DNA of 64,000 nt from Flaccisagitta enflata (Eukaryota), in the NCBI GenBank assembly GCA_965153355.1, contig OZ231126.1, positions 42,408,001 through 42,472,000 of the forward strand, written 5' to 3'. This document shows, one piece after another, positions 506 to 62,692 of this stretch. A program made the translations under genes and the position numbers. The notes beneath the pieces were generated by a model that was not told the DNA's origin, made no database searches, and saw only the letters and a program-made list of their open reading frames with translations. The number at the start of each line of letters is the position of its first letter. The stretch's first letter is position 1.

Positions 506-1573
506 TTTCACAAATTGTCTGTTGTTCTCTTGTCTTCCACTCGAGGTGATTGTAACTTGTTTGTCAGTATCTTGTCAGTATCTTGTCAGTACTTGTCACT
601 TTCATAAACCACGACACGCACTTTGTTGATTTGAGTGGTCGAGGTGTTGAGGAAAGGTGAAGTGTTGATTTTTGCTTTCGGAGCGCAGAGTCCAATTTCT
701 TGTACAGAATTTTGCGATTATGATTTTGATTTTGTCCTTTAACTTTCCGTCGGCGATTGTTATTGTTTTTCATAATGCGGAATGATTGTACTTCAATTTT
801 CGGCGTGCCTCGAATGGAATGAATGACTGTGAATGTTTAACTCACGTGTTCTTTCGATTGAATGGTATGTTGAGAATTGTGTTCTTATGTTAGGTATGTT
901 TGAATGAATGGTGGTTTTTCATCTCCATAACACCTGGAGATTTTCCACATATCAAAATTTTTGATTTTTTTTTAGAACCGTTCTTTTCTAAATTTTTCTA
1001 AGAATTTAGTTTTTAAACGTATCAACATTTTTTTGGTCGGGGTCCGAGCTTTTCTTTTCTGGACATTATCTTCACCTATCTTAAATAGATTGAAGATGAT
1101 CTCCGGGTAGCGTTAGCCGAATCATGAACCGCCCGGTTCTGACCTTTGATATTATTATTATTATCAAATTCTCTCTGCCTCTCGCTTTTTGCATTGCTCG
1201 ACGGCGCTCCAATTTTCTCTTTAGTCTGGAATATAGCCTTCTTTCTTTTAGCTCAATTTCTTTCTCTCTCTCTCAATTAATGATAATTAAGCAGTCAAGA
1301 AATTGATCAAGAATAGATCTATAGCCAGGACGAATGATCATCATTTGGATGATCATCCGTTACTACTCGATCGACAAACTTTTTTTTCTCCTTGACTCAA
1401 TTTGCCACGGTACAAATTTTCATATCCTAAACCGACACCAAATTGATGATAATCGCCATAAGTACAAAGTTGTATAAAGAATAATACAGTTACAAAGTTC
1501 TTACAGACTCAGTACAAAATATATACGCCTGGATTTCTTACTTTTAACGACGAAAAAAAATAAATTTCCATCG

Positions 1574-1879
1574 TTTTTAGATGCGTCCGTCAGGAACGCA
1601 TCTCTAGAAGAGGGTCTGTCCGTCCGTCGGTCCGTCCGTCCGTCGGTCCGTCCGTCGGTCCGTCCGTCCGTCCGTCCGTCCGTCCGTTACGCCTATGCAA
1701 AAACCGCGTTTCTTGGCTGTTTTTGGCCGCGGTAATATCCTACACTGAAACAAATGATCAACCAACATGTTTTGAGAGTGTTTTCACTCGTCTGTTCGTC
1801 TGTCTCTCCATTCATATGTCACATGATCAATACACGCTGAGACACAGCCCGGACGCATCTTTGCCCGGTCGGGCTTGTT
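1574..1879 (+). mobile_element. Helentron-associated (HINE/DINE-1-like) non-autonomous element
   Basis: T-tract, AGATGCGT..ACGCATCT stem, (GTCC/GTCG)n, repeated ACGCATCT, then the 3' hairpin GCCCGGTCGGGC and TTGTT. Confidence 0.65.
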
Positions 1880-3062
1880 GTAACACATGCTGCATGCTGT
1901 TTAAAGCCATCGTTGACTTCTTCATCAAAACCTATGTCGCCTTTTTGGATGCTACTAAGGCTCCTAAACTAAAGCTTTTGACAGAATCTTATATTACTGT
2001 CTATTTACGAAACTCATGGAACAGCACATACCATTGTGCATCCTCTTATGTCCCCTTATCTAAACAGGGTCACCAGTGTCAACTGTCAAGTGGGGATTTG
2101 CAATGAGTGACAGCTATCCTCCGCCCCTCGGTATCAACCCCCAGGCCAGGAGGTATTGTCTCCCCAGACATTTTCTTATATCATTTTGACCCATTGATCA
2201 AGTTGTTTCGGCATCTGAATGTTGGATGTTACATAGGCCATATACATTGGGGAAAAGCTCCCACACTTGTTGCCTAGATAACCTCCTTATTCACTAGCTG
2301 ATAGGTTCACCAGATCTTTTTTTCATATTTTGTTATTACCTAAATGGAAAAGAGAAAAATTAGGACCACTGTCCTAATAGTAAAGAAAAATATGCTGAAT
2401 TGGAATTCTAATCGTGAGCTCGATCGAGCAAGTATATCTAATTTTAAAGCGCCGGGACTAGAAATACAGAAAGGAAATTGTTCAAAATTATCTTTTATTT
2501 CTGATGTGTTTAGCAATTTTAGTTTTCGCCAAAGACATTTGCCTTATTGCCCCGACTAGATCGGCTTTACAGAAAATGGTCGATATATGTTACAATTATT
2601 GTTTTTAAAATGGATTGTCGTTCAAGTTTCAACCCACCTGGATAAAAAGAACTCATAATTAGTAAAACAGCCTTATGATTTGGATAAGATCAAACACCTA
2701 TACAGCTCCGAAATTGCCTTTGTCTCGCAGATCAAGTACTTGGGCATGAATATTCAAAGTAATCCAGTTTTGAATTTTATGGCTGATTCTGATATCTTCT
2801 TGTTATCGATCAGCAAATTCGGGTATTGCTCGGGTATTGCTCGGGCATTGCTCGGGTATCAATCTTACGTTTTTCTGTTACAGATTACGTGGTGCAAGAT
2901 ACCGCATAACACTCGTCTAAAACGCTAGGATTTGTCATGACTCATGATCACAATTTCATGGAAATATATACTAAAATCAAAAAATGATTCTGATGTAACA
3001 AAGAGAAAAGCAATCAAAACGATCGCATGAAACGATTTTTTGTTTCTGTTTCTTGTTCTTTC

Positions 3063-3295
3063 TTTTTTTTAGTCGCGTGTTACGCGACACTACACCCTGC
3101 TTTGTCCGTCGGTCGGTCGGTCGGTCGGTCGGTCGGTCGGTTGGTCGGTTGGTTGGTCGGTCAGTCGGTTGGTCGGTCGGTCGGTCCCCATTTTACTTTA
3201 TGTTTTTGCGGTCTTTGGCCTCACTGCACAGTAACTCAAATACTGCCCCTGCCCACCCGCACGCGACTAAGGTAGCCGTGTATCCAGCCTTGTTT
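3063..3295 (+). mobile_element. HINE/DINE-1-like element (AGTCGCGT subfamily)
   Basis: TTTTAGTCGCGTG..ACGCGAC stem, (GGTC)n, 3' CCCGCACGCGACT..GCCGTGTATCCAGCCTTGTT. The same layout recurs many times in the window. Confidence 0.7.
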
Positions 3296-4025
3296 CATGA
3301 AATATTTGAAGATTTTGCCATTTACGAGGAATTCCGAAGAAACTGCCCGTTTGTGCGCTTGTAATCTAGCAAGGCCGATAAGTAGTCGCTGGCGGGTGGG
3401 CAGGGGTGGAAATGCGGTGGGCAGGGGCAGTACTTGGGTGGACGAGAGCCGTAATATGACTGGGCAGGGGCCATAATGCTTATAAATCCTTTATTCAGCC
3501 GATTTCGCGTATAATTCAAAATTTCGCGTTGCCTCCCTACCTTACTTCCTACACAGCCCCTTATCGAGTCGCTTAGCCAGCGACCAAAAAGTACTTTTCG
3601 CCATTGTCAAAAAAAGAATAAAAATAAAAATAAAAATAAAAAAGTACTTTTCGCCATTGTCAAAAAAGAAAAATGAAGGAATCAACACCGAATGAAAGAG
3701 CGGACTTCATCAAACCGGCTTCTGTAAATGCCGACAAAACCAAAACCACCGAGGGCATTCCCAGGTTCATTTTAGTTTTTATGGTTTCAGTGTCAATTCT
3801 GCCGATATGTATGAACAATTTGAAACAAATCAATTGCCTCATTAATATCGTCATTCAGGTACATCATGGTGTACACGGGTTTTCTGTGCGTGGTTGCGTT
3901 TTGCCAAGGCATGACCACCGCAGCGTTTTTTGGAGGAATTACGACCATTGAAAAAGCCTTTCAATTCTCCTCAACACAAATGGGCATCGCAAATTCCATG
4001 TTTGTCGTCGGTTTTGCAGGTGAGT

Positions 4026-4085
<60 letters not shown>

Positions 4086-4229: not shown

Positions 4230-4376
4230 AACAAGGCCGGATACACGGCCACTACCAGTTGCGGATAGGTGGGCAGGGGCGGAAATACCCATTTTCCCAC
4301 TTTTTAACTCGATGACCCCGGACGGACCGACGGACGGACAAAGCCTCTTATAGAGTTGCGTGTCCGCAACTAAAAA
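4230..4376 (-). mobile_element. HINE-like element (AGTTGCG subfamily) in SLCO intron 2
   Basis: Reverse complement reads TTTTAGTTGCGGACACGCAACTCTATAAGAGG-(GTCC)n..GGCCGTGTATCCGGCCTTGTT. Close relative at 27258-27412. Confidence 0.7.
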
Positions 4377-4862
4377 CGTGAACTTACAGAAAATAGGAGA
4401 GATTAGTCACCAAAAAAGATCAAGACCAACATTTTTCATCCACGTTTCTTTTATATTAGGAATTCAACCTGTGTGGTCGTACTTCGGCGATCGTTTGTAC
4501 AAGCCATATTTGTACGCGTTTGGGCAGTACATCGTTGAAGTTTCAAACTTTATTCCCATGTTGATGGCCTTTTGGTACACGGCCCCGATGGACGCGGGCG
4601 CTGATGGGAATGGAGGAGGAGCCGAACTAAACCCAAACGCTTCCACTTCTACTTCTTACGCTCTTTGCATGCGACAGGACAATGCGACAAAGTTGACCGA
4701 TGATGTGCTCGATCCTAACGGGAATAATCCGGCGGTATGTTAATTGATAAAGGGGGTTAAGAAAGCAGGGGCCATAAAGATATTTAGACAGGGGAAATGA
4801 TGAATAACGAGCCAACCAGTTTCTTGACAATGGGCTAAGGGTGAAAGGCCAAATACACTGAC

Positions 4863-5740
4863 AAACAGGCCGCTCAAGCGTCATTATGGTCAGCGGTTCC
4901 CGATGCCCCATTGATATCATTTAGTATTGTAGTGTTGGGGTAATGGGGCAGCGGCCCCGGAGGGGTCGATGACCTATGGTTCCACACAGGGCAATTTTGT
5001 TTTGGGAGGCATGATCTTGGGTCTGAGAGGTCTGATCTGGGGTCCATAAGGTCTGATCTGGGGTGTAAGAGGCCTGATAAGAGGTCTGGGAGGCCTGAGT
5101 TAAGGCTTAAGAAGCCTGAAAAGAGGTCTGAGAGGCCTGATTTGGGGTCTGAGAGGCCTGATTTGGGATCCCAGATGCCTGATTTGTAGTTTGATATGCC
5201 AGATTTGGGGTCTGAGAGGCCTGATAAGAGGTCCAAAGGCCTGAGTTTGGGACTAAGAGGCCTGATATGTGGTCTGAGAGGCCTGATTTGGGGTCTGAGA
5301 GGCCTGATTTAGGATCCCAGATGCTTGATTTGTAGTTTAAGAGGCCTGATTTTGAATCCGAGAGGCCTGATTTTGAATCCGAGAGGCCTGATTTTGAATC
5401 CGAGAGGCCTGATTTGGGGTCTGAGAGGCCTGATTTGAGGTCTGAGAGGCCTGATTTGGGGTCTAATAGGCTGGATTTGAGGTCTTAGAGGCCTGCTTTG
5501 AGGTCTGAGAGACCTGATTTGGGGTCTGAAAAGCCTGATTTGGGGTCTGAGAGGCCTGATTTGGGGTCTGAGAGGCCTGATTTGGGGTCTGAGAGGCCTG
5601 CTTTGAGGTCTGAGAGGCCTGCTTTGAGGTCTGAGAGGCCTGATTTGGAGCTTTGGGGGGGGGACACTGACATCAGATCGGAAAAATTGCCCTGTGTGGA
5701 ACCATAGGTCATCGACCCCTCCGGGGCCGCTGCCCAAAAA
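4863..5740 (-). mobile_element. Non-autonomous element: 53-bp inverted repeats enclosing a 21-bp tandem array, plus an ~80-bp tail
   Basis: Perfect inverted repeat 4946-4998 / 5683-5735 (GGGCAGCGGCCCCGGAGGGG...). Internal (GAGAGGCCTGATTTGGGGTCT)n. Relatives at 21134-21703, 62693-63271, 9057-9349 and from 50951. Confidence 0.75.
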
Positions 5741-6569
5741 GACGTTGCCCAGCAAGTTCCATGCCATATGAATCGGTTAACATGTAAGATACTATGACGG
5801 AAACATGAACGCCACATTACCATAGTATTCAGCGGGCGAAATTTAGCTAACTAATTTTGGGAAGTAGTTTCAGGAAACATTTCTATCATCCTCCATCATC
5901 ACAATCGCTGCTTAACCGTGGTGTATGTGTTGTACGGTTCCTGTTCCTATCTAGGCATTCTAAAACTCAACATCATACGAGTTATATCATACAACTTATA
6001 TGGTTTGTTTTTTGTTCTTATCTAGGCTTACGACAACTTCGTGCCTTACGTGTGGTACTGTTTGTTCTTGTTCTTGTACGGTGGCGGATTCTGTCCACAA
6101 TTTAGCATCGCGTTGACTCACATCGACGATCACGTTCCTGCATCTGCATCCGCTTTCATGTTGTCTCTACCAACAGCGTCTTTCTTCCTCGGACCGATCC
6201 CTGGATTTGCTTTGGGTATAGAACGAGTTGATATTTTTTCTTATGATTTTTACTGTTCCAACAACATTGCGCGATGATTTATCAAATCAATATGTCGCCT
6301 CCAACCCACCAGCCAGTTCCAGATGCAATATTTACCAACAATCCATTAAGCACCATCTGTTATCACACAGATTGAAAAATTAGGGAGATACAGCAACAAG
6401 ATGAAAAAGGTGATCTCAATAGTCTAAACACTTATGGCTCACTACACAACAAATATCATTAGCAACTTTCATTTCACATATTTTGCTATCATGTCATGCA
6501 ATAAGAGATAAACAGTTTAGTTCAAACGATATTCTTACTCAAAATGCTTTTTTTCTGTGCATGGATAAA

Positions 6570-6777: not shown

Positions 6778-7098
6778 CAACCAAGTTATTCAATACGTTA
6801 TAGAATCCATTATCCTTGATCCTGCATTTTCCCATTTTCCACTCAGCTGGTTACCTCCTTCAAATCCATTACGATTTCTCCACTCCGGCTTATGGACCTT
6901 CGGACGCGCGATGGATCGGCAATTGGTGGCTGATGTTCCCGACTGTTGGATTCGTGGCCATTTCCGTCTCCACCGTCATCGCCTGTTATCCAACCAGAGC
7001 CCAAATGCGCCGGTACGCTGCAGCGAGAGCCGCTCAAAACGAGAAAGAGCCGTTGAAAGTTGCGGGGGACGAACCCATAAGAAGCGGGAAAGTGGGTA

Positions 7099-7275
7099 CA
7101 GTTAAACCCCGCTCTAACGGACCCGCCACCAACGGAATTCCGCCTATAACAGACACAAATTCATGGTCCCTTCAAGTTAATTTCTTTTATTTCCTTTGTC
7201 GGCAATAACAGAAGTCCGCCTATAACAAAAAAAAACTGTTGGTCCCCTGAAATCCGTTAGAGCGGGGTTTAACTG
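7099..7275. mobile_element. Tc1/mariner-pogo-like MITE inserted in SLCO coding exon 5
   Basis: 23-bp perfect TIR CAGTTAAACCCCGCTCTAACGGA with TA duplication at 7097-98 / 7276-77. Degenerate relative at 23448-23643. Confidence 0.9.
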
Positions 7276-7761: not shown

Positions 7762-9056
7762 CATCAGGAATCATTGCACTGGTAATGAGAAAGAAGAGTA
7801 CCAGTGCGCAGAAAAGTCATTGCACATGTGGTAAAATCAATATAGTTTCACAGCTGAATGGAGGCGTGTCCATGCATATCAAAATTCAGAGTGTTCTGTT
7901 ATTTTACTACAAAATCATATTCGTATCAGTATATCCCAGTTAAATAAGCAAAGTGAAGTAATTTGGCTCTGTTGTAAAACAAGCCCTTTTTCCCCAAATG
8001 CCTTCACGTCAGCGTTGTCCCATGGAGGCGCAAACGATTTACCAAGAGGATCATTTATTTGTTTCTTACAGCTCTAAGACGTACGTGTTGGTGCTGTTAT
8101 CCTCCTCTTTTGCGGCTTTTGCATTCGTTGGATTTGATTATTTCCTCATGAAAATTCTCTCGGTCCAATTTCAAAAAGACCCTACCAATGCCAATGAGAC
8201 CCTCAGCGGTGTTGCGTTAGGAGTGGCCCTCTCCATCATCGTCGGGGGATACATCTCCAAAAGGTGAGATAGATTTTTTATGGCCAGTACCATGATGGAC
8301 TCATCGGGCCTTTTTCAGTGATTTATTAACCCCCCCCTGACTCGTCCTCTCCCCCCGACATAATGTTGCGAATCACTGAGGCCATTAATGTTAACAAATT
8401 TGCCCAATTTTCAAATCGTTTATATATGAAAATTGATCGTTGGTTTTTATAGATCATTAGATAGCACTGCTATCTTTGAGCATCGGAATCGCGGGATCGC
8501 TTTTAGATAAGACCTGGAAATCATCCAAACAATCAGCTACTTTCTTTCTTTTAGATTCAACTTTTCGCCGGCAAAAATGCTCCTCATACAGTTCATCCTG
8601 CATTTTATGCAATTTGTATTCATGTTCATTATGATATTCACAAAATGTGCAAAAATTGAAATTCCCTCCCTGGAGATATCGCCTGGTCCAAAGACGGGCC
8701 TTCCACAACTTCAGGTTTTTTCCCTCTTTGTTTGCCAAATTCATTCTAAGACATGATCACGCGGAAACAAACAATTACTTAAAACATCTTAGCATTCAAC
8801 ATCAAACGTATGACAAGTAAAACAATGTCCTTCACTATACCCAAACTGACAAACATGGAGGAGGGCCTTGTAAACCCTCACTGTCTAGTTACGCTGTCTG
8901 ACAAATCAAAGAGACAAAGAGGCAAAATAACGATTGACATTTTACTAATGTCCTGATTGACAATAACCTAAGAAGACAAAAGATGACAGACAAGAAAAGA
9001 CAAAAGGTAAAAAAATGACAGTGCCTGTAGTTGTGTTTTGATTAAAGTTGAGGGTA

Positions 9057-9349
9057 GGGGCAGAGCAGCGACCCCAAAGGGGCTGATGACCTATGCTTTG
9101 ACACATTGAGAATTTCTCATTTGGGTGAATTTCTCATTTGGGAGAATTTCTCATTTGGGATTTGGGCTTAGGGGCTGGGTTTTGGGCCTTGAGCTAGATT
9201 TTGTGCTTGAGGCTTAGATTTAGGCTTTGACGCCGGCATTTGGACCTTGAGGCCTCGATGCTGGGAATTGGGTGTCGACGCTGTTTTCACATATGGGGAA
9301 ATTTCTCCTCCTCCCCCTTCTACCTCCCTTCCCCCTCAGGCCTCGAGAC
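9057..9349 (+). mobile_element. Truncated copy of the GCAGCGGCCCC..GGGG / 21-bp-repeat element family
   Basis: GCAGCGACCCCAAAGGGGCTGATGACCTATGCTTT head resembles 50955-50990. The copy stops abruptly at the foldback array. Confidence 0.5.
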
Positions 9350-9479
9350 AACAGACCATTGCCAACAGACCTTTTTGATGAATGTATCTTAGGACAACTA
9401 AATTGCTCAGAGCAGACCATTGAACGGCTTGAACAGACCATTTAATCATCCTCTGGGACAAGTTAGTGCTCCCAGCAGA

Positions 9480-12400
9480 CCATTTGTTACACCCAGCAGA
9501 CCATTCCTATGACTGCCCCCAACAGACCATTGTTACAGCTGGCAGACCATTTGTTACACCCAGCAGACCATTCCTATGACTGCCCCCAACAGACCATTGT
9601 TACAGCTGGCAGACCATTTGTTACACCCAGCAGACCAATCCCTCCACTGCCTTCAACAGACCATTGTTACAGCTGGCAGACCATTTGTTACACCCAACAG
9701 ACCATTCCCTCCACTGCCTTCAACAGACCATTGTTACAGCTGGCAGACCATTTGTTACACCCAGCAGACCATTCCTCTGACTGCCCCCAACAGACCATTG
9801 TTACAGCTGGCAGACCATTTGTTACACCCAGCAGACCATTCCTATGACTGCCCCCAACAGACCATTGTTACAGCTGGCAGACCATTTGTTACACCCAGCA
9901 GACCATTCCTATGACTGCCCCCAACAGACCATTGTTACAGTTGGCAGACCATTTGTTACACCCAGCAGACCATTCCTATGACTGCCCCCAACAGACCATT
10001 GTTACAGCTGGCAGACCATTTGTTACACCCAGCAGACCAATCCCTCCACTGCCTTCAACAGACCATTGTTACAGCTGGCAGACCATTTGTTACACCCAAC
10101 AGACCATTCCCTCCACTGCCTTCAACAGACCATTGTTACAGCTGGCAGACCATTTGTTACACCCAGCAGACCATTCCCTCCAATGCCTTCAACAGACCAT
10201 TGTTACAGCTGGCAGACCATTTGTTACACCCAGCAGACCATTCCTATGACTGCCCCCAACAGACCATTGTTACAGCTGGCAGACCATTTGTTACACCCAG
10301 CAGACCATTCCCTCCACTGCCTTCAACACACCATTGTTACAGCTGGCAGACCATTTGTTACCCCCAACAGACCATCCTCACTGCCTTCAACAAGCCATTG
10401 TTACAGCTGGGAGACCATTTGTTACACCCAGCAGACCGTTTCCTCCAATGCCTTCAACAGACCACTGTTACAGCTGGCAGACCATTTGTTACACCCAGCA
10501 GACCATTCCCTCCAATGCCTTCAACAGACCATTGTTACAGCTGGCAGACCATTTGTTACACCCAGCAGACCATTCCTATGACTGCCCCCAACAGACCATT
10601 GTTACAGCTGGCAGACCATTTGTTACACCCAGCAGATCATTCCTATGACTGCCCCCAACAGACCATTGTTACAGCTGGCAGACCATTTGTTACACCCAGC
10701 AGACCAATCCCTCCACTGCCTTCAACAGACCATTGTTACAGCTGGCAGACCATTTGTTACACCCAACAGACCATTCCCTTCACTGCCTTCAACAGACCAT
10801 TGTTACAGCTGGCAGACCATTTGTTACACCCAGCAGACCATTCCCTCCAATGCCTTCAACAGACCATTGTTACAGCTGGCAGACCATTTGTTGCACCCAG
10901 CAGACCATTCCTATGACTGCCCCGAACAGACCATCGTTACAGCTGGCAGACCATTTGTTACACCCAGCAGACCATTCCTATGACTGCCCCCAACAGACCA
11001 TTGTTACAGCTGGCAGACCATTTGTTACACCCAGCAGACCAATCCCTCCACTGCCTTCAACAGACCATTGTTACAGCTGGCACACCATTTGTTACACCCA
11101 ACATACCATTACCCCCGCTGCCTTCAACAGACCATTGTCACAGCTGGCAGACCATTTGTTACACTCAGCAGACCATTCCCTCCAATGCCTTCAACAGACC
11201 ATTTTTACAGCTGGCAGACCATTTGTAACACCCAGCAGACCATTCCTATGATTGCCTTCAACAGACCACTGTTACAGCTGGCAGACCATTTGTTACACCC
11301 AGCAGACCATTCCCTCCAGTGCCTTCAACAGACTATTGTTACAGCTGGCAGACCATTTGTTACACCCAGCAGACCATTCCTCTGACTGCCCCCAACAGAC
11401 CATTGTTACAGCTGGCAGACCATTTGTTACACCCAACAGACCAATCCCTCCACTGCCTTCAACAGACCATTGTTACAGCTGGCAGACCATTTGTTACACC
11501 CAGCAGACCATTCCCTCCAATGCCTTCAACAGACCATTGTTACAGCTGGCAGACCATTTGTTACACCCAGCAGACCATTCCTATGACTGCCCCCAACAGA
11601 CCATTGTTACAGCTGGCAGACCATTTGTTACACCCAGCAGACCATTCCTATGACTGCCCCCAACAGACCATTGTTACAGCTGGCAGACCATTTGTTACAC
11701 CCAGCAGACCAATCCCTCCACTGCCTTCAACAGACCATTGTTACAGCTGGCAGACCATTTGTTACACCCAACAGACCATTCCCTTCACTGCCTTCAACAG
11801 ACCATTGTTACAGCTGGCAGACCATTTGTTACACCCAGCAGACCATTCCCTCCAATGCCTTCAACAGACCATTGTTACAGCTGGCAGACCATTTGTTACA
11901 CCCAGCAGACCATTCCTATGACTGCCCCCAACAGACCATTGTTACAGCTGGCAGACCATTTGTTACACCCAGCAGACCATTCCTATGACTGCCCCCAACA
12001 GACCATTGTTACAGCTGGCAGACCATTTGTTACACCCAGCAGACCAATCCCTCCACTGCCTTCAACAGACCATTGTTACAGCTGGCAGACCATTTGTTAC
12101 ACCCAACAGACCATTCCCTCCACTGCCTTCAACAGACCATTGTCACAGCTGGCAGACCATTTGTTACACCCAGCAGACCATTCCCTCCAATGCCTTCAAC
12201 AGACCATTGTTACAGCTGGCAGACCATTTGTAACACCCAGCAGACCATTCCTATGACTGCCTTCAACAGACCATTGTTACAGCTGGCAGACCATTTGTTA
12301 CACCCAGCAGACCATTCCCTCCACTGCCTTCAACAGACCATTGTTACAGCTGGCAGACCATTTGTTACACCCAGCAGACCATTCCTCTGACTGCCCCCAA

Positions 12401-15400
12401 CAGACCATTGTTACAGCTGGCAGACCATTTGTTACACCCAACAGACCAATCCCTCCACTGCCTTCAACAGACCATTGTTACAGCTGGCAGACCATTTGTT
12501 ACACCCAGCAAACCATTCCCTCCAATGCCTTCAACAGACCATTGTTACAGCTGGCAGTCCATTTGTTACACCCAACAGACCATTCCTATGACTGCCCCCA
12601 ACAGACCATTGTTACAGCTGGCAGACCATTTGTTACACCCAGCAGACCATTCCTATGACTGCCCCCAACAGCCCATTGTTACAGCTGGCAGACCATTTGT
12701 TACACCCAGCAGACCAATCCCTCCACAGCCTTCAACAGACTATTGTTACAGCTGGCAGACCATTTGTTACACCCAACAGACCATTTCCTCCGCTGCCTTC
12801 AGCAGACCATTGTTACATCTGGCAGACCATTTGTTACACCCAGCATACCAATCCCTCCACTGCCTTCAACAGACCATTGTTACAGCTGGCAGACCATTTG
12901 TTACACCCAACAGACCATTCCCTCCACTGCCTTCAACAGAACATTGTTGCAGCTGGCAGACCATTTGTTACACCCAGCAGACCATTCCCTCCAATGCCTT
13001 CAACAAACCATTGTTACAGCTGGCAGACCATTTGTTACACCTAGCAGACCATTCCTATAACTGCCCCCAACAGACCATTGTTACAGCTGGCAGACCATTT
13101 GTTACACCCAGCAGACCATTCCTATGACTGCCCCCAACAGACCATTGTTACAGCTGGCAGACCATTTGTTACACCCAGCAGACCAATCCCTCCACTGCCT
13201 TCAACAGACCATTGTTACAGCTGGCAGACCATTTGTTATGCCAGCAGACCAACCTCATGCAGCCACAGGCCATACAGCTGGGTCCATTTATTACACCCAG
13301 CAGACCATTCCTATGACTGCCCCCAACAGACCATTGTTACAGCTGGCAGACCATTTGTTACACCCAGCAGACCATTCCTATGACTGCCCCCAACAGACCA
13401 TTGTTACAGCTGGCAGACCATTTGTTACACCCAGCAGACCAATCCCTCCACTGCCTTCAACAGACCATTGTTACAGCTGGCAGACCATTTGTTACACCCA
13501 ACAGACCATTCTCTCCGCTGCCTTCAGCAGACCATTGTTACATCTGGCAGACCATTTGTTACACCCAGCATACCAATCCCTCCACTGCCTTCAACACACC
13601 ATTGTTACAGCTGGCAGACCATTTGTTACACCCAACAGACCATTCCCCCCACTGCCTTCAACAGAACATTGTTACAGCTGGCAGACCATTTGTTACACCC
13701 AGCAGACCATTCCCTCCAATGCCTTCAACAGACCATTGTTACAGCTGGCAGACCATTTGTTACACCCAGCAGACCATTCCTATAACTGCACCCAACAGAC
13801 CATTGTTACAGCTGGCAGACCATTTGTTACACCCAGCAGACCATTCCTATGACTGCCCCCAACAGACCATTGTTACAGCTGGCAGACCATTTGTTACACC
13901 CAGCAGACCAATCCCTCCACTGCCTTCAACAGACCATTGTTACAGCTGGCAGACCATTTGTTACACCCTACAGACCATTCCCTCCATTGCCTTCAACAGA
14001 CCATTGTTACAGCTGGCAGACCATTTGTTACACCCAACAGACCATTCCCTCCACTGCCTTCAACAGACTATTGTTACAGCTGGCAGACCATTTGTTACAC
14101 CCAGCAGACCAATCCCTCCACTACCTTCAACAGACCATTGTTACAGCTGGCAGACCATTTGTTACACCCAACAGACCATTCCCTCCACTGCCATCAACAG
14201 ACCATTGTTACAGCTGGCAGACCATTTGTTACACCCAACAGACCATTCCCTCCACTACCTTCAACAGACCTATGTTACAACTGGTTGACCATTTGTAACA
14301 CCCAACAGACCATTCCCTCCACTGCCTTCAACAGACCATTGTTACAGCTGGCAGACCATTTGTTACACCCAGCAGACCATTCCTATGACTGCCCCAACAG
14401 ACCATTGTTACAGCTGGCAGACCATTTGTACACCTGGCAGACCATTCCTCCCACTGCCTTCAACAGACCATTGTTACAGCTGGCAGACCATTTGTTACAC
14501 CCAACAGACCATTCCCTCCAATGCCTTCAACAGACCATTGTTACAGCTGGCAGACCATTTGTTACACCCAGCAGACCATTCCCTCCAATGCCTTCAACAG
14601 ACCATTGTAACAGCTGGCAGACCATTTGTTACACCCAACAGACCATTCCTCAACTGCCTCAACAGACCATTGTTACAGCTGGCAGACCATTTGTTACACC
14701 CAGCACCAATCCCTCATGCCTTCAACTGCCATTGTTACAGCTGGCACACATTTGTTGCCCAACAGACCATTACCTTCACCTTTTTCAGCAGACCATTGCA
14801 GCTGGTATACCATTTGTTACACTCAGCAGACCATTCCCTCCAATGCCTTCAACAGACCATTGTTACAGCTGGCAGACCATTTGTTACACCCAGCAGACCA
14901 TTCCTATGACTGCCCCCAACAGACCATTGTTACAGCTGGCAGACCATTTGTTACACCCAGCAGACCATTCCTATGACTGCCCCCAACAGACCATTGTTAC
15001 AGCTGGCAGACCATTTGTTACACCCAGCAGACCAATCCCTCCACTGCCTTCAACAGACCATTGTTACAGCTGGCAGACCATTTGTTACCAACATACCATT
15101 CCCTCAGTGCCTTCAACAGACCATTTTACAGCTGGCAGACCATTTGTTACACCAGCAGACCATTCCTCAATGCCTTCAACAGACCATTGTTACAGCTGGC
15201 AGACCATTTGTAACACCCAGCAGACCATTCCTATGATTGCCTTCAACAGAATATTGTTACAGCTGGCAGACCATTTGTTACACCCAGCAGACCATTCCCT
15301 CCAATGCCTTCAACAGACCATTGTTACAGCTGGCAAACCATTTGTTACACCCAGCAGACCATTCCTCTGACTGCCCCCAACAGACCATTGTTACAGCTGG

Positions 15401-15966
15401 CAGACTATTTGTTACACCCAGCAGACCATTTCTATGACTGCCCCCAACAGACCATTGTTACAGCTGGCAGACCATTTGTTACACCCAGCAGACCCATCCC
15501 TCCACTGCCTTCAACAGACCATTGTTACAGCAGGCAGACCATTTGTTACACCCAACAGACCATTTCCTCCACTGCCTTCATTAGAACATTGTTACAGCTG
15601 GCAGACCATTTGTTACACCCAGCAGACCATTCCCTCCACTGTCTTTAACAGACCATCGTAAAAGCTGGCAGACCATTTGTTACACCCAGCAGGCCATTCC
15701 CTCCACTACCTTTAATAGACCATTGTTACAGCTGGCAGACAATTTGTTACACCCAGCAGACTATTCCTTCCACTGCCCCCAACAGACCATTTTTACAGCT
15801 GGCAGACCATTTGTTATTCCAAGCAGTACATTCCTTCCACTACCCCCAACAGACCATTGTTACAGCTGGCAGACCCTTTGTTACACCCAGCAGACCATTC
15901 CCTCCATTGCCTTCAACAGACCATTGTTACAGCTGGCAGACCATTTGTTACACTCAGCAGACCATT
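9480..15966 (+). repeat. 67-bp tandem satellite, left arm, with a 335-bp (5-unit) higher-order repeat
   Basis: Unit AACAGACCATTGTTACAGCTGGCAGACCATTTGTTACACCCAGCAGACCA followed by a variable ~17-nt segment. Near-identical ORF starts recur at 335 and 1005 bp offsets (10645, 11650, 11985). Confidence 0.95.
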
Positions 15967-15972
15967 TCCTCC

Positions 15973-18900
15973 AATGGTCTGCTGGGTGCAACAAATGGTC
16001 TGCCAGCTGTAACAATGGTCTGTTGAAGGCAGTGGAGGGAATGATCTGTTGTGTGTAACAAATGGTCTGCCAGCTGTAACAATGGTCTGTTGAAGGCAAT
16101 GGAGGGATTGGTCTGCTAGGTGTAACAAATGGTCTGCCAGCTGTAGCAAGGGTCTGTTGGGGGCAGTCATAGGAATGGTCAGCTGAGTGTAACAAATGTT
16201 CTGCCAGCTGTAACAATGGTCTGTTCGGGGCAATTACAGGAATGGTCCTCTAGGTGTAACAAACGGTCTGCCATTTGTAACAATGGTCTGTTGAAGGCAT
16301 TGGAGGGAATGGTCTGCTCGGTAAAACAAATGGTCTGCCATGTGACAATGGTCTGTTGAAGGCAGTGGTGAAATGAACTGTTTGTGTAAGAAATGGTCTG
16401 CCACCTGTAACAATGGTCTGTTAAAGGCATTGGAAGGATTGGTCTGCTGGGTGTAACAAATGGTCGGCCAGCTAACAGCAATGCTCTTTGGGGGCAGTCA
16501 TCAGAATGGTCTGCTGGGTGTAAAAACGGTCTGCCGAGAACAGCGGCAATGGTCTGTTGGGGGCAGTCATAAATGGTCTGCTGGGTGTCTGAAATGGTCT
16601 GCCAGCTGTAACAATGGTCTGTTGAAGGCATTGGAAGGAATAGTCTGCTGGGTGTAACAAATGGTCTGCCAGCTGTAACAATGGTCTGTTGAAGGCAGTT
16701 GAGAATGGTCTGTTGGGTAACAAATGGTCTGCCAGCTGTAACAATGGTCTGTTGAAGGCAGTGGAGGGATTGGTCTGCTGGGTGTAACAAATGGTCTGCC
16801 AGCTGTAACAATGGTCTGTTGGGGGCAGTCATAGGAATGGTCTGCTGGGTGTAACAAATGGTCTGCCAGCTGTTACAATGGTCTGTTGGGGGCAGTCGGA
16901 GGAATGGTCTGCTGGGTGTAACAAATGGTCTGCCAGCTATAACAATGGTCTGTTGAAGGCATTGGAGGGAATGGTCTGCTGGGTGTAACAAATGGTCTGC
17001 CAGCTTTAACAATGGTCTGTTGAAGGCAGTGGAGGGAATGGTCTGTTGGGTGTAACAAATGGTCTGCCAGCTGTAAGAATGGTCTGTTGGAGGCAGTCAT
17101 AGGAATGGTCTGCTGGGTGTAACAAATGGTCTGCCAGCTGTAACACTGTTCTGTTGAAGGCATTGGAGGGAATGGTTTGCTGGGTGTAACAAATGGTCTG
17201 CCAGCTGTAACAATGATCTGTTGAAGGCAGTGAAGAAAATATTCGGTAAAATGTAACAATGGTCGCCGCTGTAACAATGGTCTGAAGGCAGTGGAGGAAA
17301 TGGTCTGCTGTGTATTAAATGGTCTGCCAGCTGTAACAATGGTCTGTTGAAGGCGGAGGGATTGGTCTGCTGGGTAACAAATGGTCTGCCAGCTGTAACA
17401 ATGGTCTGTTGGGGCCGTCAAAGGAATGGTCTGCTGGGTGTAACAAATGGTCTGCCAGCTGTAACAATGGTCTGTTGGGGGCAGTCAGAGGAATGGTCTG
17501 CTGGGTGTAACAAATGGTCTGCCAGCTGTAACAATGGTCTGTTGAAGGCAGTGGTGGTCTGCTGGGTGTAACAAATCTGCCAGCTGTAACAATGGTCTGT
17601 TAAAGGCAGTGGAAGGAATGGTCTGTTGGGTGTAACAAATGGTCTGCCAGCTGTAAGTGGTCTGTTGAAGGCAGTGGAGGGATTGGTCTGCTGGGTGTAA
17701 CAAATGGTCTGCCAGCTGTAACAATGGTCTGTTGAAGGCAGTGGAGGGATTGGTCTGCTGGGTGTAACAAATGGTCTGCCAGCTGTAACAATGGTCTGTT
17801 GGGGGCAGTCATAGGAATGGTCTGCTGGGTGTAACAAATGGTCTGCCCGCTGTAACAATGGTCTGTTGGGGGCAGTCAGAGAATGGTCTGCTGGTAACAA
17901 CAAATGGTCTCCAGCTTAATGGTCTGATGGGAGTGAATGGTCTGCTGGGTGTAACAAATGGTCTGCCAGCTGGCAATGGTCTGTTGAAGGCAGTGGAGGG
18001 AATGGTCTGCTGGGTGTAACAAATGGTCTGCCAGCTGTAACAATGGTCTGTTGAAGGCAGTGGAGGGAATGGTCTGCTGGGTGTAACAAATGGTCTGCCA
18101 GCTGTAACAATGGTCTGTTGGGGGCAGTTATAGGAATGGTCTGCTGGGTATAACAAATTGTCTGCCAGCTGTAAAAATGGTTTGTTGGGGGAAGTCATAG
18201 GAATGGTCTGCTGGGTGTAACAAATGGTCTGCCAGCTGTAACAATGGTCTGTTGAAGGCATTGGAGGGAATGATCTGCTGGGTGTAACAAATGGTCTGCC
18301 AGCTATAACAATGGTCTGTTGAAGGCAGTGGAGGGAATGGTCTGTTGGGTATAACAAATGGTCTGCCAGGTGTAACAATGGTCTGTTGATGGCAGTGGAG
18401 GGATTGGTCTGCTGGGTGTAACAAATGGTCTGCCAGCTGTAACAATAGTCTGTTGGGGGCAGTCAGAGATATGGTCTGCTGGGTGAAACAAATGGTCTGT
18501 CAGCTGTAACAATGGTCTGTTGAAGGCAGTGGAGGGATTGGTCTGCTGGGTGTAACAAATGGTCTGCCAGCTGTAACAATGGTCTGTTGAAGGCAGTGGA
18601 GGGAATGGTCTGTTGGGTGTAACAAATGGTCTGCCAGCTGTAACAATGGTCTGTTGAAGGCAGTGGAGGGATTGGTCTGCTGGGTGTAACAAATGGTCTG
18701 CCAGCTGTAACAATGGTCTGTTGAAGGCAGTGGAGGGATTGGTCTGCTGGGTGTAACAAATGGTCTGCCAGCTGTAACAATGGTCTGTTGGGGGCAGTCA
18801 TAGGAATGGTCTGCTGGGTGTAACAAATGGTCTGCCAGCTGTAACAATGGTCTGTTGAAGGCATTGGAGGGAATGGTCTGCTGGGTGTAACAAATGGTCT

Positions 18901-19835
18901 GCCAGCTGTAACAATGGTCTGTTGAAGGCAGTGGAGGGAATGGTCTGTTGGGTGTAACAAATGGTCTGCCAGCTGTAACAATGGTCTGTTGAAGGCAGTG
19001 GAGGGATTGGTCTGCTGGGTGTAACAAATGGTCTGCCAGCTGTAACAATGGTCTGTTGGGGGCAGTCATAGGAATGGTCTGCTGGGTGTAACAAATGGTC
19101 TGCCAGCTGTAACAATGGTCTGTTGGGGGCAGTCATAGGAATGGTCTGCTGGGTGTAACAAATGGTCTGCCAGCTGTAACAATGGTCTGTTGAAGGCATT
19201 GGAGGGAATGGTCTGCTGGGTGTAACAAATGGTCTGCCAGCTGTAACAATGGTCTGTTGAAGGCAGTGGAGGGAATGGTCTGTTGGGTGTAACAAATGGT
19301 CTGCCAGCTGTAACAATGGTCTGTTGAAGGCAGTGGAGGGATTGGTCTGCTGGGTGTAACAAATGGTCTGCCAGCTGTAACAATGGTCTGTTGGGGGCAG
19401 TCATAGGAATGGTCTGCTGGGTGTAACAAATGGTCTGCCAGCTGTAACAATGGTCTGTTGGGGGCAGTCATAGGAATGGTCTGCTGGGTGTAACAAATGG
19501 TCTGCCAGCTGTAACAATGGTCTGTTGAAGGCATTGGAGGGAATGGTCTGCTGGGTGTAACAAATGGTCTGCCAGCTGTAACAATGGTCTGTTGAAGGCA
19601 GTGGAGGGAATGGTCTGTTGGGTGTAACAAATGGTCTGCCAGCTGTAACAATGGTCTGTTGAAGGCAGTGGAGGGATTGGTCTGCTGGGTGTAACAAATG
19701 GTCTGCCAGCTGTAACAATGGTCTGTTGGGGGCAGTCATAGGAATGGTCTGCTGGGTGTAACAAATGGTCTGCCAGCTGTAACAATGGTCTGTTGGGGGC
19801 AGTCATAAGAATGGTCTGCTGGGTGTTACAAATGG
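15973..19835 (-). repeat. 67-bp tandem satellite, right arm (inverted)
   Basis: Reverse complement of the same unit. Exact 335-bp periodicity over about 18800-19800 (identical ORFs 19066-19404 and 19401-19739). Confidence 0.95.
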
Positions 19836-20386
19836 TCTGCTGGGAGCACTAATTTGTCCCAGAGGATTATTAAATGGTCTGTTCAAGCCCTTCAATGGTC
19901 TGCTCTGAGCAATTTAGTTGTCCTGAGATACATTCGTCCAAAAGGTCTGTTGGCAATGGTCTGTTCGATTACCAATTCTGACAAAGGAACAGATGTACTA
20001 ATTCTGTTGTGGTTATGTGGGCGAGTACTAACGTATCGTTGTTTCAATCCAGATATTATCAGCTAATTGTAGCTCAACATGTGGATGCCAAACTCCTTTC
20101 CAGCCCATTTGTGGGTACAACGATGAGCAATTCTATTCCCCATGCACTGCTGGATGCACCGGAATGACTTCAATGGATGTCGGGGATGTTATTTTCAACA
20201 ATTGCTCGTGCATTTCCGGAGAAGGTATTCTTGAAAAGTTGACGATTGTCCATTAATACGCGCCCTTGACATCTCCAACTTATGATCATCACTCTTTTAT
20301 TTTCGATGTTTGATTCTATACATTCTATACATTCTCTGTCTGTCTTTGTCTCTGTCTGTTTTTCCGTTTCTGTCTATCCGTCAAAA

Positions 20387-20537
<151 letters not shown>

Positions 20538-21133
20538 CTCTTCCAGGATGGGCAAGAGACGGATTCTGTCCATCTTCTTCATGTATCGCTGGAACTGTCT
20601 ACGTGGCACTTGTCATTGCCATGAGGTTCACATCATCCTTTGGACGCGTTTACATGATGGCCATTTGTATGAGATCTGTTTCAGAAGCAAATAAGACACT
20701 AGCATTAGGACTTCGATCCATGATCGGTAAGACAAGGTCTACTTACAGTGAGTGTTAAGCATTCCCTATATTATTTTCCTTTCCTTTACATTCTATTATT
20801 TTTGTTTTGTTCTCCGGGATTCAATATGTTGTTAGTCAGCTGGTTGGTTGCCAATGGTTGGTTTATTGGGTGGTTGGTTGGTTGGTTGGTTGGTTGGTTG
20901 GTTGGTTGGTTGGTTGGATGATTGGTTAGATGGTTTATCGTTCCTTATGTTTATCAAAACTTTCTTTTTGGGAAATCAAAGGCTTTATTTGCACCACCAC
21001 TCCTGACCTGTATAATTGGTCATTTTTTTTCTACTGCCCCTGTCCAACCGCACACGAAGAGGGTAGCTGTGTATCCAGCCTTGATCTCTCCCTTTTGTTG
21101 CATTCAGATCATGTTGCACAAATTTTCTTTTCT

Positions 21134-21703
21134 TTTTGGGCAGCGGCCCCGAAGGGGACGAAGTCCTGTAGAACACAGGGGGACTTTTGTTCGTCCGTTC
21201 GTTAGTTCGTGCGTCCGTCCCCCCCCCCTCATCAGGCCCCTCAGGCCTCAAATCTAACCTCTGAGACCTCAATTCTGGCTTCTCAGGCCTCAAATTCAGC
21301 CTCTTAGGCCTCAAATCAGGCCTCTCAGGCTGCAAATCCGGCCTCTCAAGCCTCAAATCCAACCTCTCAGGCCTTAAACCTGGCCTCTCAGGCCTCAAAC
21401 CTGGCCTCTCAGGCCTCAAATTAGGCCTCTCAGGCCTCAAATCAGCTATCAGCTTCCGATTGGCATTCTGAAGCCTTGCATCAGCCTTCTTAGAACTCAG
21501 TTTAGGCTCTTGAAGACCTTCAGTAGGCCGTCTATAGCATCTCATCCACTTCTTCAGGCAGGACGAACGAAAGTCCCCCTGTGTTCTACAGGACTTCGTC
21601 CCCTTTGGGGCCGCTGCCCTGCTTCCCCTCACTCCAATCCACAATCACTCAAAGCAGGGCAACGGGTATCGCTGACCACATATTGCCCTTGGGCGACCTG
21701 TTT
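21134..21703 (+). mobile_element. Inverted-repeat / 21-bp tandem-array element in the last SLCO intron
   Basis: Inverted repeat 21138-21186 / 21571-21620, internal AGGCCTCAAATCCGGCCTCTC-type units, tail GGTATCGCTGACCACATATTGCCCTTGGGCGACCTGTT. Confidence 0.75.
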
Positions 21704-22076
21704 ATCACTCTCATTACAGCCAGCATATTCGGAGATGTGATGTCATCTACAATCTTGGGCGTGATCATCGATTTGGCTTGTATGTCTTGGGTCAACCCCG
21801 ACACAGAATCGGGCAATTGTTGGTTTTATGACACGGACAAGATGCATTTCTGGTTCCATCTGTTGCTACTTATTGCTCTGGGATTTTCCTCGGTTGGTTA
21901 CCTCGCCGGTTGGCGAGTGGAGAAGAAACAGGAAGGCGCGTCAGAAAGGACTTAATCTCGATTTCATAATCGTATCATCTTTTTTTTTTTCATTTTCATC
22001 ATTCTGTCTGATTTTGCGTTTATGATCTTGCTTGTAACTTGCTTTCAATGCAAATGACAAATGAATGAAATTGTTA

Positions 22077-23789: not shown

Positions 23790-34243
<10,454 letters not shown>

Positions 34244-35353: not shown

Positions 35354-36991
35354 TTCCCACAGATCTTCCCAGATCCAGATCTCTCCAACATCCCATTTAC
35401 ATCAACATGGTCATGACACTATTTTGGATCGAGTAAATTTGGACTCTATGTCTTTGTCTTTCTTCGTTTTTCACACATCTGTGGATACCCCCCCAAAGAG
35501 AATCGAAATATCCATTTTTTCTGACTGTGTCATTTGTCTTCAGGAATATGTGGACTACTAAAAAGAAACAAAAAATGAAAAAATTCTTTTGAAATTTTTT
35601 CATTTATATCACTTTTTGGGCAAAAAAAGGTCATTTTTAGTACTTTTTTGGCATGAAATTGTTTTTACAGCTTTGAAAATTGAAAAAAATACTGGAAATA
35701 TGTGGCAATAGCTAGAATACACATGTTTTTACCATTAGCAGGTTTTTTGGATATCTTAAAGATAAGAGCGTAAAAAAAGCCTAAAACTGCAAAATATCGT
35801 TTTTTTTTTAAATATTTTTCTGTCCTAATTTGTTCAGGCAGCATAATAACTCTTAAAAAATCTTAGAAATGTGTGGCAATAGCTAGAACATACATGTTTT
35901 TACACTTGACAAAAAGTTTTTTTGGGATATCTTAAAGATAAGCGCATAAAAAAAACCAAAAAAACGGCAAAATATCCCCTTTTTGGTATTTTTAAGTGCT
36001 AATTCGTTCATGCAGCATAAGAACTCTTAAACAATCTTAGAAATGTGTGGCAATAGCTAGAACATACATGTTTTTACCTTTGACAAAAAATTTTTGGGAT
36101 ATCTTAAAGATAAGAGCATAAAAAAGACCCAAAAAATGGTAAAATATTGCTGTTTTTAGTAATTTTAAGTCCTTATCCGTTCAGGTTAAAATAGTTATAC
36201 TCAAGACTACCACTATACATTTCTAGGATTTTTCAGGAATTATTATGCTGCATGAACAAATAAAGACTTAAAATTATTAAAAAAAATGATATTTTACCGT
36301 TTTTTTTTTTTTGTCTTTCTTATGCTCTTATCTTTTCAATAACCCAAAAAACTTTTTGTAAAGGGTAAAAACATGTATATCCTAGCTATTGCCACACATT
36401 TTAAAGATTTTTTAAGAGTTTTTATGCTGCATGAAAGAAAAAGGATTTAAAAACACTGAAAAAAAGGATATTTTGCCGTGTTTTGGTTTTTTTTATGCGC
36501 TTATCTTCAAGATATCCCAAAAAACTTTTTGCTAAGGGTAAAAACATGTATATTCTAGCTATTGTAACACATTTCTAAGATTTTCCAAGAGTTATTATGC
36601 TGCATGAACAAATTAGGACAGAAAAATACTGAAAAAAACTATATTTTGCCGTTTTTTGGCTTTTTTTATGCTCTTATCTTCAAGATATCCCAAAAAAATT
36701 TTTGCTAATGGTAAAAACATGTGTATTCTAGCTATTGCCACCTATTTCCAGTATTTTTTGGGATTTTCAAAGCTGTATAAACAATTTTATACAAAAAAAA
36801 TGCTAAAAATAGTTTGTTTGTTTTTTTTCTCAAAAAGTGATATAAATGAAAACATTTCAGGAGAATTTTTTTCTTTTTTGTTTTTTTTTAGTAGTCCACA
36901 TGTTCCTGAAGACAAAAGACGCAGTCAGAAAAAAATGGATATTTTGATTCTCTTTGGGGGGGTATCCAGAGATGTGTGTTTTGATATTCAA
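34616..36991 (-). other. Candidate exons of an unidentified, possibly decayed gene
   Basis: Putative exon 36991-35401 (split by the foldback element) joins in phase to 35163-35080, giving LNIKNEERQRHRVQIYSIQNSVMTMLMFFLIKYGSCTVEVEFQYHMSTAADALD. An open frame 34943-34616 is followed by AATAAA at 34585-34580. No recognisable domain, and the last junction is unresolved. Confidence 0.25.
35472..36978. mobile_element. 1.5-kb foldback element with CAC..GTG termini; each arm holds three ~173-bp tandem units
   Basis: The ~700-bp arms are diverged reverse complements (CACACATCTGTGGATACCCCCCCAAAGAGAATC.. / ..GATTCTCTTTGGGGGGGTATCCAGAGATGTGTG). Marker TGTGGCAATAGCTAG at 35701, 35872, 36046 and inverted near 36382, 36555, 36728. 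TTTT on both flanks. Confidence 0.85.
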
Positions 36992-47281: not shown

Positions 47282-47492
47282 TGGACGTGGACTGGAATCT
47301 GCGATGTTGCGGAGAAAGTGACTCATTTGTTACGAAACGCGATCCTTTCGTGATACAAAACAATCTGCATGACCGATATTAGTCACCAGTGATTTGAGTT
47401 GTCTTAGTTTTCAAAGTGTTGAATCCTTCGTTTTCATTATGTCAGGTTACTATTTAATAAAACACCCCCATCAACCCTTAAAAACTCGAACC

Positions 47493-50503: not shown

Positions 50504-51394
50504 ATGTTGGATGACAAAATGTCTTCGCTGTCATCCTTCTCGCCGTCGTTGAGTCGGGAGGCCTGGGACACGATTGATCACTACTCTCAGGAACTTCGCG
50601 TGGAAGTGGACCGGTTGCTCAATTTTACTTATTATCCCGTCGCTTTAGTTTCCTCTCTCTTCTTCATATTTATTTACAAAGTCGTCTCGCCCAACATTTC
50701 CTACTCGCTGTTTCCAAGGTAGGATTGTCATGATAGGGTAAGGCTATAAATTGCGAGGGATTGATTGAGAATGGCTTTTATTTGTGGCAATAAGGGCGTG
50801 GCAGTCCTGGTTTATTTGTCGCCATGAATTTTAGCGCAAATTTTGCACACCGCCTCCTAGAAAGCCTCATAAAGTTTGATCAAACTGTCATCAAATGGAA
50901 TATTTGCTTGTTCGATCCCTGTCCCACCGACACCGTCTTTCTACTCTACTTTTGGGCAGCGGCCCCGAAGGGGCCGATGACTCATGCTTTTGCAATATGG
51001 GAGATTTTCTCCTCCTCCTCCTTCTCCTCCTCCTTTCTCCGTCCCCCTCAACTCCTGGACTCGAGGCTCAAATCCCAGCCTTGAATGCTCAATTACTAAC
51101 CTTGAGGCCCAAATCTCAGCCTCGAGGCCCAAGTTCCCAGCCGTCAGCCCCAAATCTTTCTGGAAACAAGAAGAAAAGTGAATAAGTCCAACGGCCGAGA
51201 CCCTATTGACTCAGAAAACATAGTATTTTGTCTGTTCGTTAGGTCATTAGTTGCAATCACTCAGGAACTCTCTGTCCCAAGCGATTGCCATACATTAATA
51301 CAATGGGTTTTTTTTTCCAAATGGTAATAAGAACGCAAAAATGGACGAAAAACAAGAATAACTACTAGAATAACGAGAATAACATGAACGAAAT

Positions 51395-62504: not shown

Positions 62505-62692
62505 AATAAATCAGAATCTGCCGCCATTATTTTGTCGCGCCGAGTCCGTTATTGTACAGACGGCGGCATATTATGGTTTTTTTCTGGGACAGACACGAAG
62601 TCTGCGAGGCCTCGAGCTCCAAAACGCGTTCGAAACATCCAGATGTTGGCAATCAGAAAGTAAAATGCCTGTCGAATTTCAAGGGAAAAATG

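Follow-up and report, generated by a model that had tools for sequence, protein, structure and literature searches.

A probable foldback-type DNA transposon with 67-bp satellite arms in an OATP/SLCO intron of Flaccisagitta enflata

What is a 10.6-kb structure made almost wholly of a short tandem repeat, running in one direction and then back in the other, doing inside a transporter gene? The question is raised by a window of 64,000 nucleotides from Flaccisagitta enflata (GenBank assembly GCA_965153355.1, contig OZ231126.1, positions 42,408,001 to 42,472,000 of the forward strand), in which an element at 9350-19965 consists of about 156 monomers of a 67-bp satellite, has no middle domain, and has no coding capacity. 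All coordinates given here are those of the window. We present the anatomy of this element and of its host gene, together with evidence for related copies in public sequencing runs. The element is probably a non-autonomous foldback-type DNA transposon and one copy of a dispersed family, with the 9-nt core CAGACCATT as its probable transposase-binding word.

The foldback architecture proposed in an earlier note on this DNA, with inverted termini leading into facing tandem-repeat arms, was confirmed. The left and right terminal unique domains (9350-9474 on the + strand and 19841-19965 on the - strand), put at about 130 bp in that note, are 125 bp long each and form an inverted-repeat alignment without gaps, in which 119 of 125 positions match. 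Tandem Repeats Finder resolved the DNA between them into a 67-bp repeat of 97.6 copies (90% matches, 9475-15973) and its reverse complement of 58.5 copies (87% matches, 15973-19840). The arms are unequal, as had been noted, with lengths of 6617 bp on the left (array 9475-15966, + strand) and 3993 bp on the right (array 15973-19840, - strand). They meet, again as described before, over a 6-nt loop; the central palindrome (15955-15984) reads CAGCAGACCATT-TCCTCC-AATGGTCTGCTG, with 12-bp stems and the loop TCCTCC at 15967-15972. A 200-nt piece at the centre, folded as single-stranded DNA, reached -98.7 kcal/mol, compared with -27.5 ± 3.2 (standard deviation) for 200 shuffles, none of which folded as well. 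Beyond the right terminus lies a 13-bp non-inverted tail (19966-19978), which probably belongs to the element because other family copies match the right end up to 19978 and diverge after it.

The core word ties the parts of the element together. CAGACCATT occurs 237 times on the + strand (all within 9352-15958), 141 times on the - strand (all within 15973-19955), and not once in the 53 kb of the window outside the element, a confinement that excludes chance as the source of the structure described. Three cores stand in each 67-mer, at offsets 1, 22, and 48 (spacing of 21, 26, and 20 nt), dividing it into sub-units of roughly 21 to 26 bp. Four more are found in the 125-bp left terminus, at 9352, 9366 (variant CAGACCTTT), 9413, and 9434. 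The motif is common to the outer unique domain and the inner tandem repeats, and the arm is modular in this sense.

Monomers were delimited with a hidden Markov model built from 20 of them. It matched 99 times in the left arm and 60 times in the right arm, each count including one 12-nt match in the unique terminal domain, and the matches are mostly exactly 67 nt long and abut without a gap. The monomers of exactly 67 nt comprise 52 distinct sequences, the commonest of which were lettered A (24 occurrences), B (18), C (11), D (6), and E (4). Mean identity between monomers peaks at lags of 5 and 10 in both arms, giving a 5-monomer (335-bp) higher-order repeat, and both arms begin with the same one: the left arm opens AABDE-A.ABDC and the right arm.ABDC-AABDC-AABDC. 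This higher-order repeat is clearest at the outer end of the left arm; on the right it is clean over the outer ~20 monomers, and the inner part is degenerate.

Comparison of the two arms bears on their history. From the terminus inward, arm-versus-arm identity falls from 97.7% for the outermost 527 bp to 97.0, 96.1, and 93.6% when 800, 1200, and 2000 bp are taken; from the centre outward it is 94.9% over 67 bp, 91.3% over 134 bp, 85.9% over 300 bp, and 88.6% over 1000 bp, against an all-against-all monomer background of 87.8 ± 8.1%. Mirror symmetry is kept over the outer ~1.2 kb of the arms, and register is lost in the interior. The earlier statement that the variant order is not a mirror image holds for the interior; it does not hold for the outer ~1.2 kb, which is 96-98% identical in register.

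Two further properties of the arrays were considered and set aside. Long open reading frames (ORFs) cross them (up to 505 aa) and were rejected as coding, since a 67-nt unit without stops yields them when it is repeated and read in three phases. The low CpG content of the element (observed/expected 0.04, versus 0.87 elsewhere) was rejected as a sign of methylation decay, the consensus monomer itself being without CG.

The element stands in an intron, between exons that continue on the + strand on both sides as the earlier note had reported for SLCO. To the left, the Pfam OATP profile is matched collinearly on the + strand by its positions 2-48 (window 3824-4027), 42-121 (4354-4743), 140-195 (6026-6277), 187-255 (6804-7208), and 291-356 (7962-8267). 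Past the element, also on the + strand, follow Kazal_2 (20032-20256), OATP 446-505 (20540-20758), and OATP 499-545 (21527-21955). The profile piece absent between these neighbours, 357-397, is an exon at 8555-8714 (+ strand; translation of 8556-8714) that scores E=0.016 when taken alone, below the family cut-off, and ends in a donor CAGgt, split at 8714/8715. The host intron (8715-20052, + strand, 11,338 nt) extends from this donor to an acceptor cag at 20050-20052, both in phase 0, and is followed by the OATP exon with the Kazal-type domain (20053-20224, + strand; Pfam Kazal_2, E=5.8e-05; splice sites read). From these collinear profile matches and the Kazal domain, the host is an intact OATP/SLCO gene. 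The element makes up 94% of the intron and breaks no exon, and this copy looks neutral in its place.

The two facing arrays are real, because they lie between different, collinear exon flanks, can be told apart by defined monomer variants, and resemble each other least at the centre; the argument made previously against a fold-back read was borne out on these grounds. For the arm lengths and the exact centre, the assembly is the one source.

Is this element one of many? Public runs were matched to 19770-20380 at 88% likeness. Two DNA runs (X1 and X2) and one polyA RNA run (X15) are of the same species as the window, and X3 is a marine metagenome. Word depth in the unique-flank contigs was 71.3 for X1 and 114.4 for X2. 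Over the terminus (six bins, 19854-19979) it rose to ~2,680 and ~11,200, about 38× and 98× the unique flank, and over the satellite (three bins) to ~231,000 and ~860,000, about 3,200× and 7,500×, where summed word depths are not equal to copy numbers and the averages and ratios were computed by hand. Contigs that exit the terminus into unlike sequence, four in X1, seven in X2, and one in X3, all do so behind 19978. Their continuations past this point agree poorly among contigs (0.54 for X1 and 0.45 for X2), and the depth drops there from thousands to 0, the flank contig excepted. A 299-nt contig of depth 82 (X2 record 15), for example, matches 19901-19978 and then runs on through 221 nt of unlike sequence. 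Some terminus contigs merely stop at 19963-19965. Because the terminus depth is raised and contigs diverge behind 19978, these data support a dispersed family of many copies with differing flanks, of which the element would be one. The family postulated in the earlier note is thereby borne out for the right end only (raised depth and 12 contigs leaving at 19978).

The ratio of satellite to terminus depth is 86 in X1 and 77 in X2, and the copy in the window has 78 monomers per terminus. As a crude measure and no demonstration, this ratio leaves it plausible that the family serves as a "satellite nursery," as had been suggested. JGI metagenome contigs contained 0 matches to 26 nt of the terminus tip and 0 to 29 nt of a monomer, results that are uninformative on the family, and three pieces of the monomer, searched as strings, gave no match in the literature covered by the search.

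The same runs bear on this locus itself. Record 6 of X1 (459 nt) matches the right flank from 20231 down to 19989 with 5 differences and then continues for 216 nt unlike 19770-19988; record 16 of X2 (431 nt) matches from 20362 down to 19989 with 7 differences and continues for 57 nt unlike the same interval. For the orientation of minus-strand records, X3 record 19 with its 54-nt loose end served as the check. The interval 19980-19988 has no coverage in X1, where the bin depth of 40.8 is 12/21 of 71.3. The joint between element and flank seen in the window is absent from the flank contigs of X1 and X2, in which presence is shown better than absence. Read in this way, the contigs suggest that the element in its window form is probably absent from the locus in X1 and X2, which would make it a recent-ish, polymorphic insertion or rearrangement. 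That these contigs derive instead from a diverged paralogue or another allele is less likely.

Which known elements does it resemble? Among the structural features of foldback elements, we found inverted arms of tandem repeats, a modular arm, and dispersed copies of the same end (the right end), and we did not find a target-site duplication. The arms of Drosophila FB, in the work of Potter (1982) and Truett et al. (1981), are reportedly long and inverted, with short tandem repeats that go back to a core shorter still; they are also said to be unequal at times, with many copies having no central domain or ORF. The element likewise has long inverted tandem-repeat arms of unequal length, no central domain, and no ORF. 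It differs from FB in that the two share no sequence relation, in its 67-bp unit and 335-bp higher-order repeat, and in that no counterpart of FB's 9-bp target-site duplication was found. FB is also linked to a transposase of the Mutator/Phantom type. Tetris of Drosophila virilis (Dias et al. 2014, PMC4079207) has an outer flanking domain and tandem repeats that share a motif, carries no ORF, and has seeded a satellite. It is like the present element in being non-autonomous and in joining an outer unique domain to motif-sharing, satellite-like tandem repeats. Tetris has a middle domain, repeats of ~220 bp, terminal inverted repeats (TIRs) that reach 1.7 kb, and target-site duplications of 8-10 bp (same paper), whereas the element here has arms of 6.6 and 4.0 kb, no middle domain, and no duplication that was found.

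The Mutator/Foldback family Tm1, from root-knot nematodes, is characterized by composite TIRs, variable short tandem repeats, and unequal ends (PMC3169594). Short asymmetric motifs outside its inverted repeat resemble the 13-bp tail at 19966-19978. Tm1 is unlike our element in its size of about 1-2.6 kb, its 14-bp repeats, and its mostly 9-bp target-site duplications, whose length is 8-10 bp in 45 of the 53 elements; a Phantom-like transposase is moreover encoded by one of its members (PMC3169594). In Galileo, of the P superfamily in the Drosophila buzzatii group, tandem repeats within long TIRs carry extra binding sites for a THAP transposase (PMC3688188). Its foldback-like long TIR with internal tandem repeats serves as the model for the predicted role of the CAGACCATT cores; Galileo differs in encoding its own P-like transposase and in TIRs of about 1 kb. 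The foldback type is already known from Drosophila FB, Tetris, and Tm1, and the element is a further member, not another kind.

By analogy with Galileo and FB, the CAGACCATT words would act as reiterated binding sites for a transposase encoded elsewhere, and the element would move by cut and paste. Its arrays would lengthen and shorten through unequal exchange, as the 5-monomer higher-order repeat may reflect, with the outer ~1.2 kb of both arms kept alike and the interior left to decay.

Several observations weigh against a foldback transposon. The target-site duplication whose search had been proposed was not found: between 9200-9362 and 19955-20010 there is no direct repeat, either at a length of 7 or more with every base matching or at 8-10 bases with one mismatch allowed, and the 7-8-bp duplication of the P superfamily (Galileo-like) is likewise not found between these intervals. 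The sole word that they share is the 6-mer AACAGA, at 9350 and 19988. The 8-mer CTGACAAA, noticed by eye at 8899 and 19977, was rejected as a duplication, being within chance and in conflict with the boundary at 19989. No transposase gene (the MULE and FLYWCH type of the Mutator/Phantom superfamily included) was found in the window, where ORFs were judged by eye and Pfam was run on the OATP pieces alone; the expected transposase-bearing partner is thus not among the contents of the window. The 300 bp of left flank at 9040-9340 show 67-79% identity to repeats at 4931-5006, 5681-5733, 21590-21639, and 50956-51137 of the window, and to the right of the element this old repeat is not taken up again. 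Together with the missing duplication, this makes the flanks unlike those of a simply interrupted target. Ten bases (19979-19988) between the end of the family and the point where similarity to X1 and X2 restarts are unaccounted for. The family evidence consists of short k-mer contigs and concerns the right end alone. Conservation of the core, finally, speaks for the transposon but is a modest signal: in the 113 monomers, out of 152, that measure exactly 67 nt, non-consensus cells amount to 3.4% in core columns versus 9.0% elsewhere, and a value as low is reached by just 3 of the 67 circular shifts of the core mask.

The missing duplication and the discontinued flank would be expected if a foldback copy had been rearranged after insertion, or were a recombinant of two copies, with an adjacent deletion. 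They would also be expected if its second end had been restored by snap-back, in which a one-ended remnant of terminus plus array would prime its own synthesis from a hairpin at the 4-nt CATT...AATG found in some monomers. We regard this set of origins as unlikely, and as the strongest of the alternatives. The unequal arms would fit it, as would the known tendency of foldback elements to promote rearrangements (PMC4079207). The centre fits as well. Each arm ends just past the second core of a monomer, and the loop TCCTCC is the following six bases of the left-arm monomer. CATT-YCCTCC-AATG is found at the centre-equivalent place in 14 left-arm and 7 right-arm monomers, and the centre is identical to one of these monomers as far as AATG, after which it reverses. 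This is the signature that would be expected from snap-back at a 4-nt inverted microhomology, and snap-back itself is inferred, because symmetry slightly above the background is confined to the innermost ~130 bp. Identities of 94.9%, 91.3%, and 85.9% at 67, 134, and 300 bp, set against 87.8 ± 8.1%, amount to weak mirror symmetry, and any snap-back would therefore have been old or short. An origin of this kind is in any case compatible with a foldback transposon and not truly exclusive of it.

A bolder form of the same idea is that the 67-bp satellite exists essentially only as foldback arms, and that a lone terminus-plus-array rebuilds itself, by snap-back at the 4-nt mini-palindrome, into a whole element with two ends that could be mobilized again. 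It is suggested by the genome-wide satellite/terminus ratio, which is close to that of the copy in the window, and we hold it to be doubtful. If true, the repeat would be the binding-site array, the satellite, and the self-repair device of a transposon at once.

Less probable again is that no transposon is involved, and that a satellite array with a conserved edge underwent local inverted duplication, its edges having been spread by segmental duplication, extrachromosomal circles, or a Helitron/Helentron-type carrier. Neither a target-site duplication nor, in the window, a transposase was found, and the evidence for a family comes from one end only, all of which would suit this account. The sharp boundary at 19978, common to 12 contigs, and the mutually unlike continuations in X1 and X2 speak instead for insertion at many sites and not for segmental duplication; the same 125-bp domain, inverted at both ends and bearing four copies of the core word of the array, also argues against it. 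As for the carrier, Helitrons and Helentrons have 5'-TC and CTRR-3' ends and a 3' hairpin, are one-directional, and have no inverted arms. The ends AACAG... and ...CAATTC, and the presence of two inverted ends, do not fit them, and membership in this group was rejected. In favour of such a carrier, satellite arrays on Helentron-type elements are reported from oysters (PMC7492417).

That the interior (arm lengths, centre, and missing middle domain) is partly an assembly artefact, with two facing arrays still real, is very improbable, in that its favourable points (the junction of the window is not in X1 or X2, and long inverted tandem arrays are hard to assemble, long-read bias at inverted repeats being the subject of a preprint, 10.64898/2026.07.13.738322) are met by the flanks being different collinear exons of one gene where a fold-back chimeric read would repeat one flank, by the right terminus and ~20 clean monomers abutting the unique right flank in inverted orientation, by arms that differ through defined monomer variants rather than random errors and are least symmetric at the centre, and by a window with an N count of 0.

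Transcription was considered last. About 6% of the polyA RNA run X15, equal to 12.2 million records, was covered. It yielded 0 reads on the satellite, the terminus, and the exon at 20053-20224, the host exon being thus equally unseen, and the 3 reads placed all lie at a low-complexity stretch (20332-20378). The earlier suggestion that the pre-mRNA folds into a hairpin that gives rise to small interfering RNA or editing has no support here, and 0 polyA reads do not refute it.

Other features of the window and of the runs were recorded. The old dispersed repeat, one copy of which holds the left flank of the element, lies at 4874-5776, 9040-9340, 20985-21644, and 50956-51137, with further copies recognized by translation motifs at 58509-58868 and 62549-63232; it has a conserved head and internal 17-21-bp tandem repeats, of which the unit ATCTGGCCTCTCAGGCCTCAA (21231-21443) is an example. 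At 35472-36978 lies another foldback-like element, 1.5 kb long and unrelated to the first. Its 49-nt termini (35472-35520 and 36930-36978) are 96% complementary, and its opposed arms (35684-36185 and 36217-36748), each with ~3 copies of an AT-rich repeat of ~174 bp, meet near 36185-36216. It is flanked by ...GTTTTT on the left and TTTTGA on the right, a possible 4-5-nt duplication of a T run. This genome may hold many foldback elements whose arms are tandem repeats. Beside the transporter gene, an uninterrupted open frame of 794 aa (47373-49757, + strand) probably represents a gene of one exon; the protein-atlas clusters closest to it are HMG-box proteins (HMGXB4 or "high mobility group protein 2-like 1," score 0.90). 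Micro- and minisatellites are abundant in the window (1478-1740, 2977-3275, 20387-20534, 24549-24869, 25540-25709, 28919-30438, and others) and include (TC)74, (AAC)107, (TG)85, 10-14-bp arrays of ~60 copies, and tetranucleotide runs that translate as PTDR/GRTD.

Small shares of window-like sequence are also present in marine and seawater metagenomes of several studies (X3 to X14). Among them are the satellite, a diverged terminus (13 differences in 124 nt), and the Kazal exon (a 162-nt contig with 2 differences). Because satellite, terminus copies, and Kazal exon all occur in these metagenomes, the animal or a close relative was evidently sampled in sea water, judging from these sequence matches.

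Taken alone, the element adds an instance to the foldback type and no principle. Coming from a marine animal and sequenced in full, it illustrates cleanly how a satellite-like repeat can make up the arms of a mobile element, a situation also seen in Tetris. Its arms show a gradient from homogenized outer to decayed inner monomers, and its centre hints at the way in which palindromes of this sort arise. Should the family be active and polymorphic, it would supply this species with structural variation, inversions, and long introns able to form hairpins.

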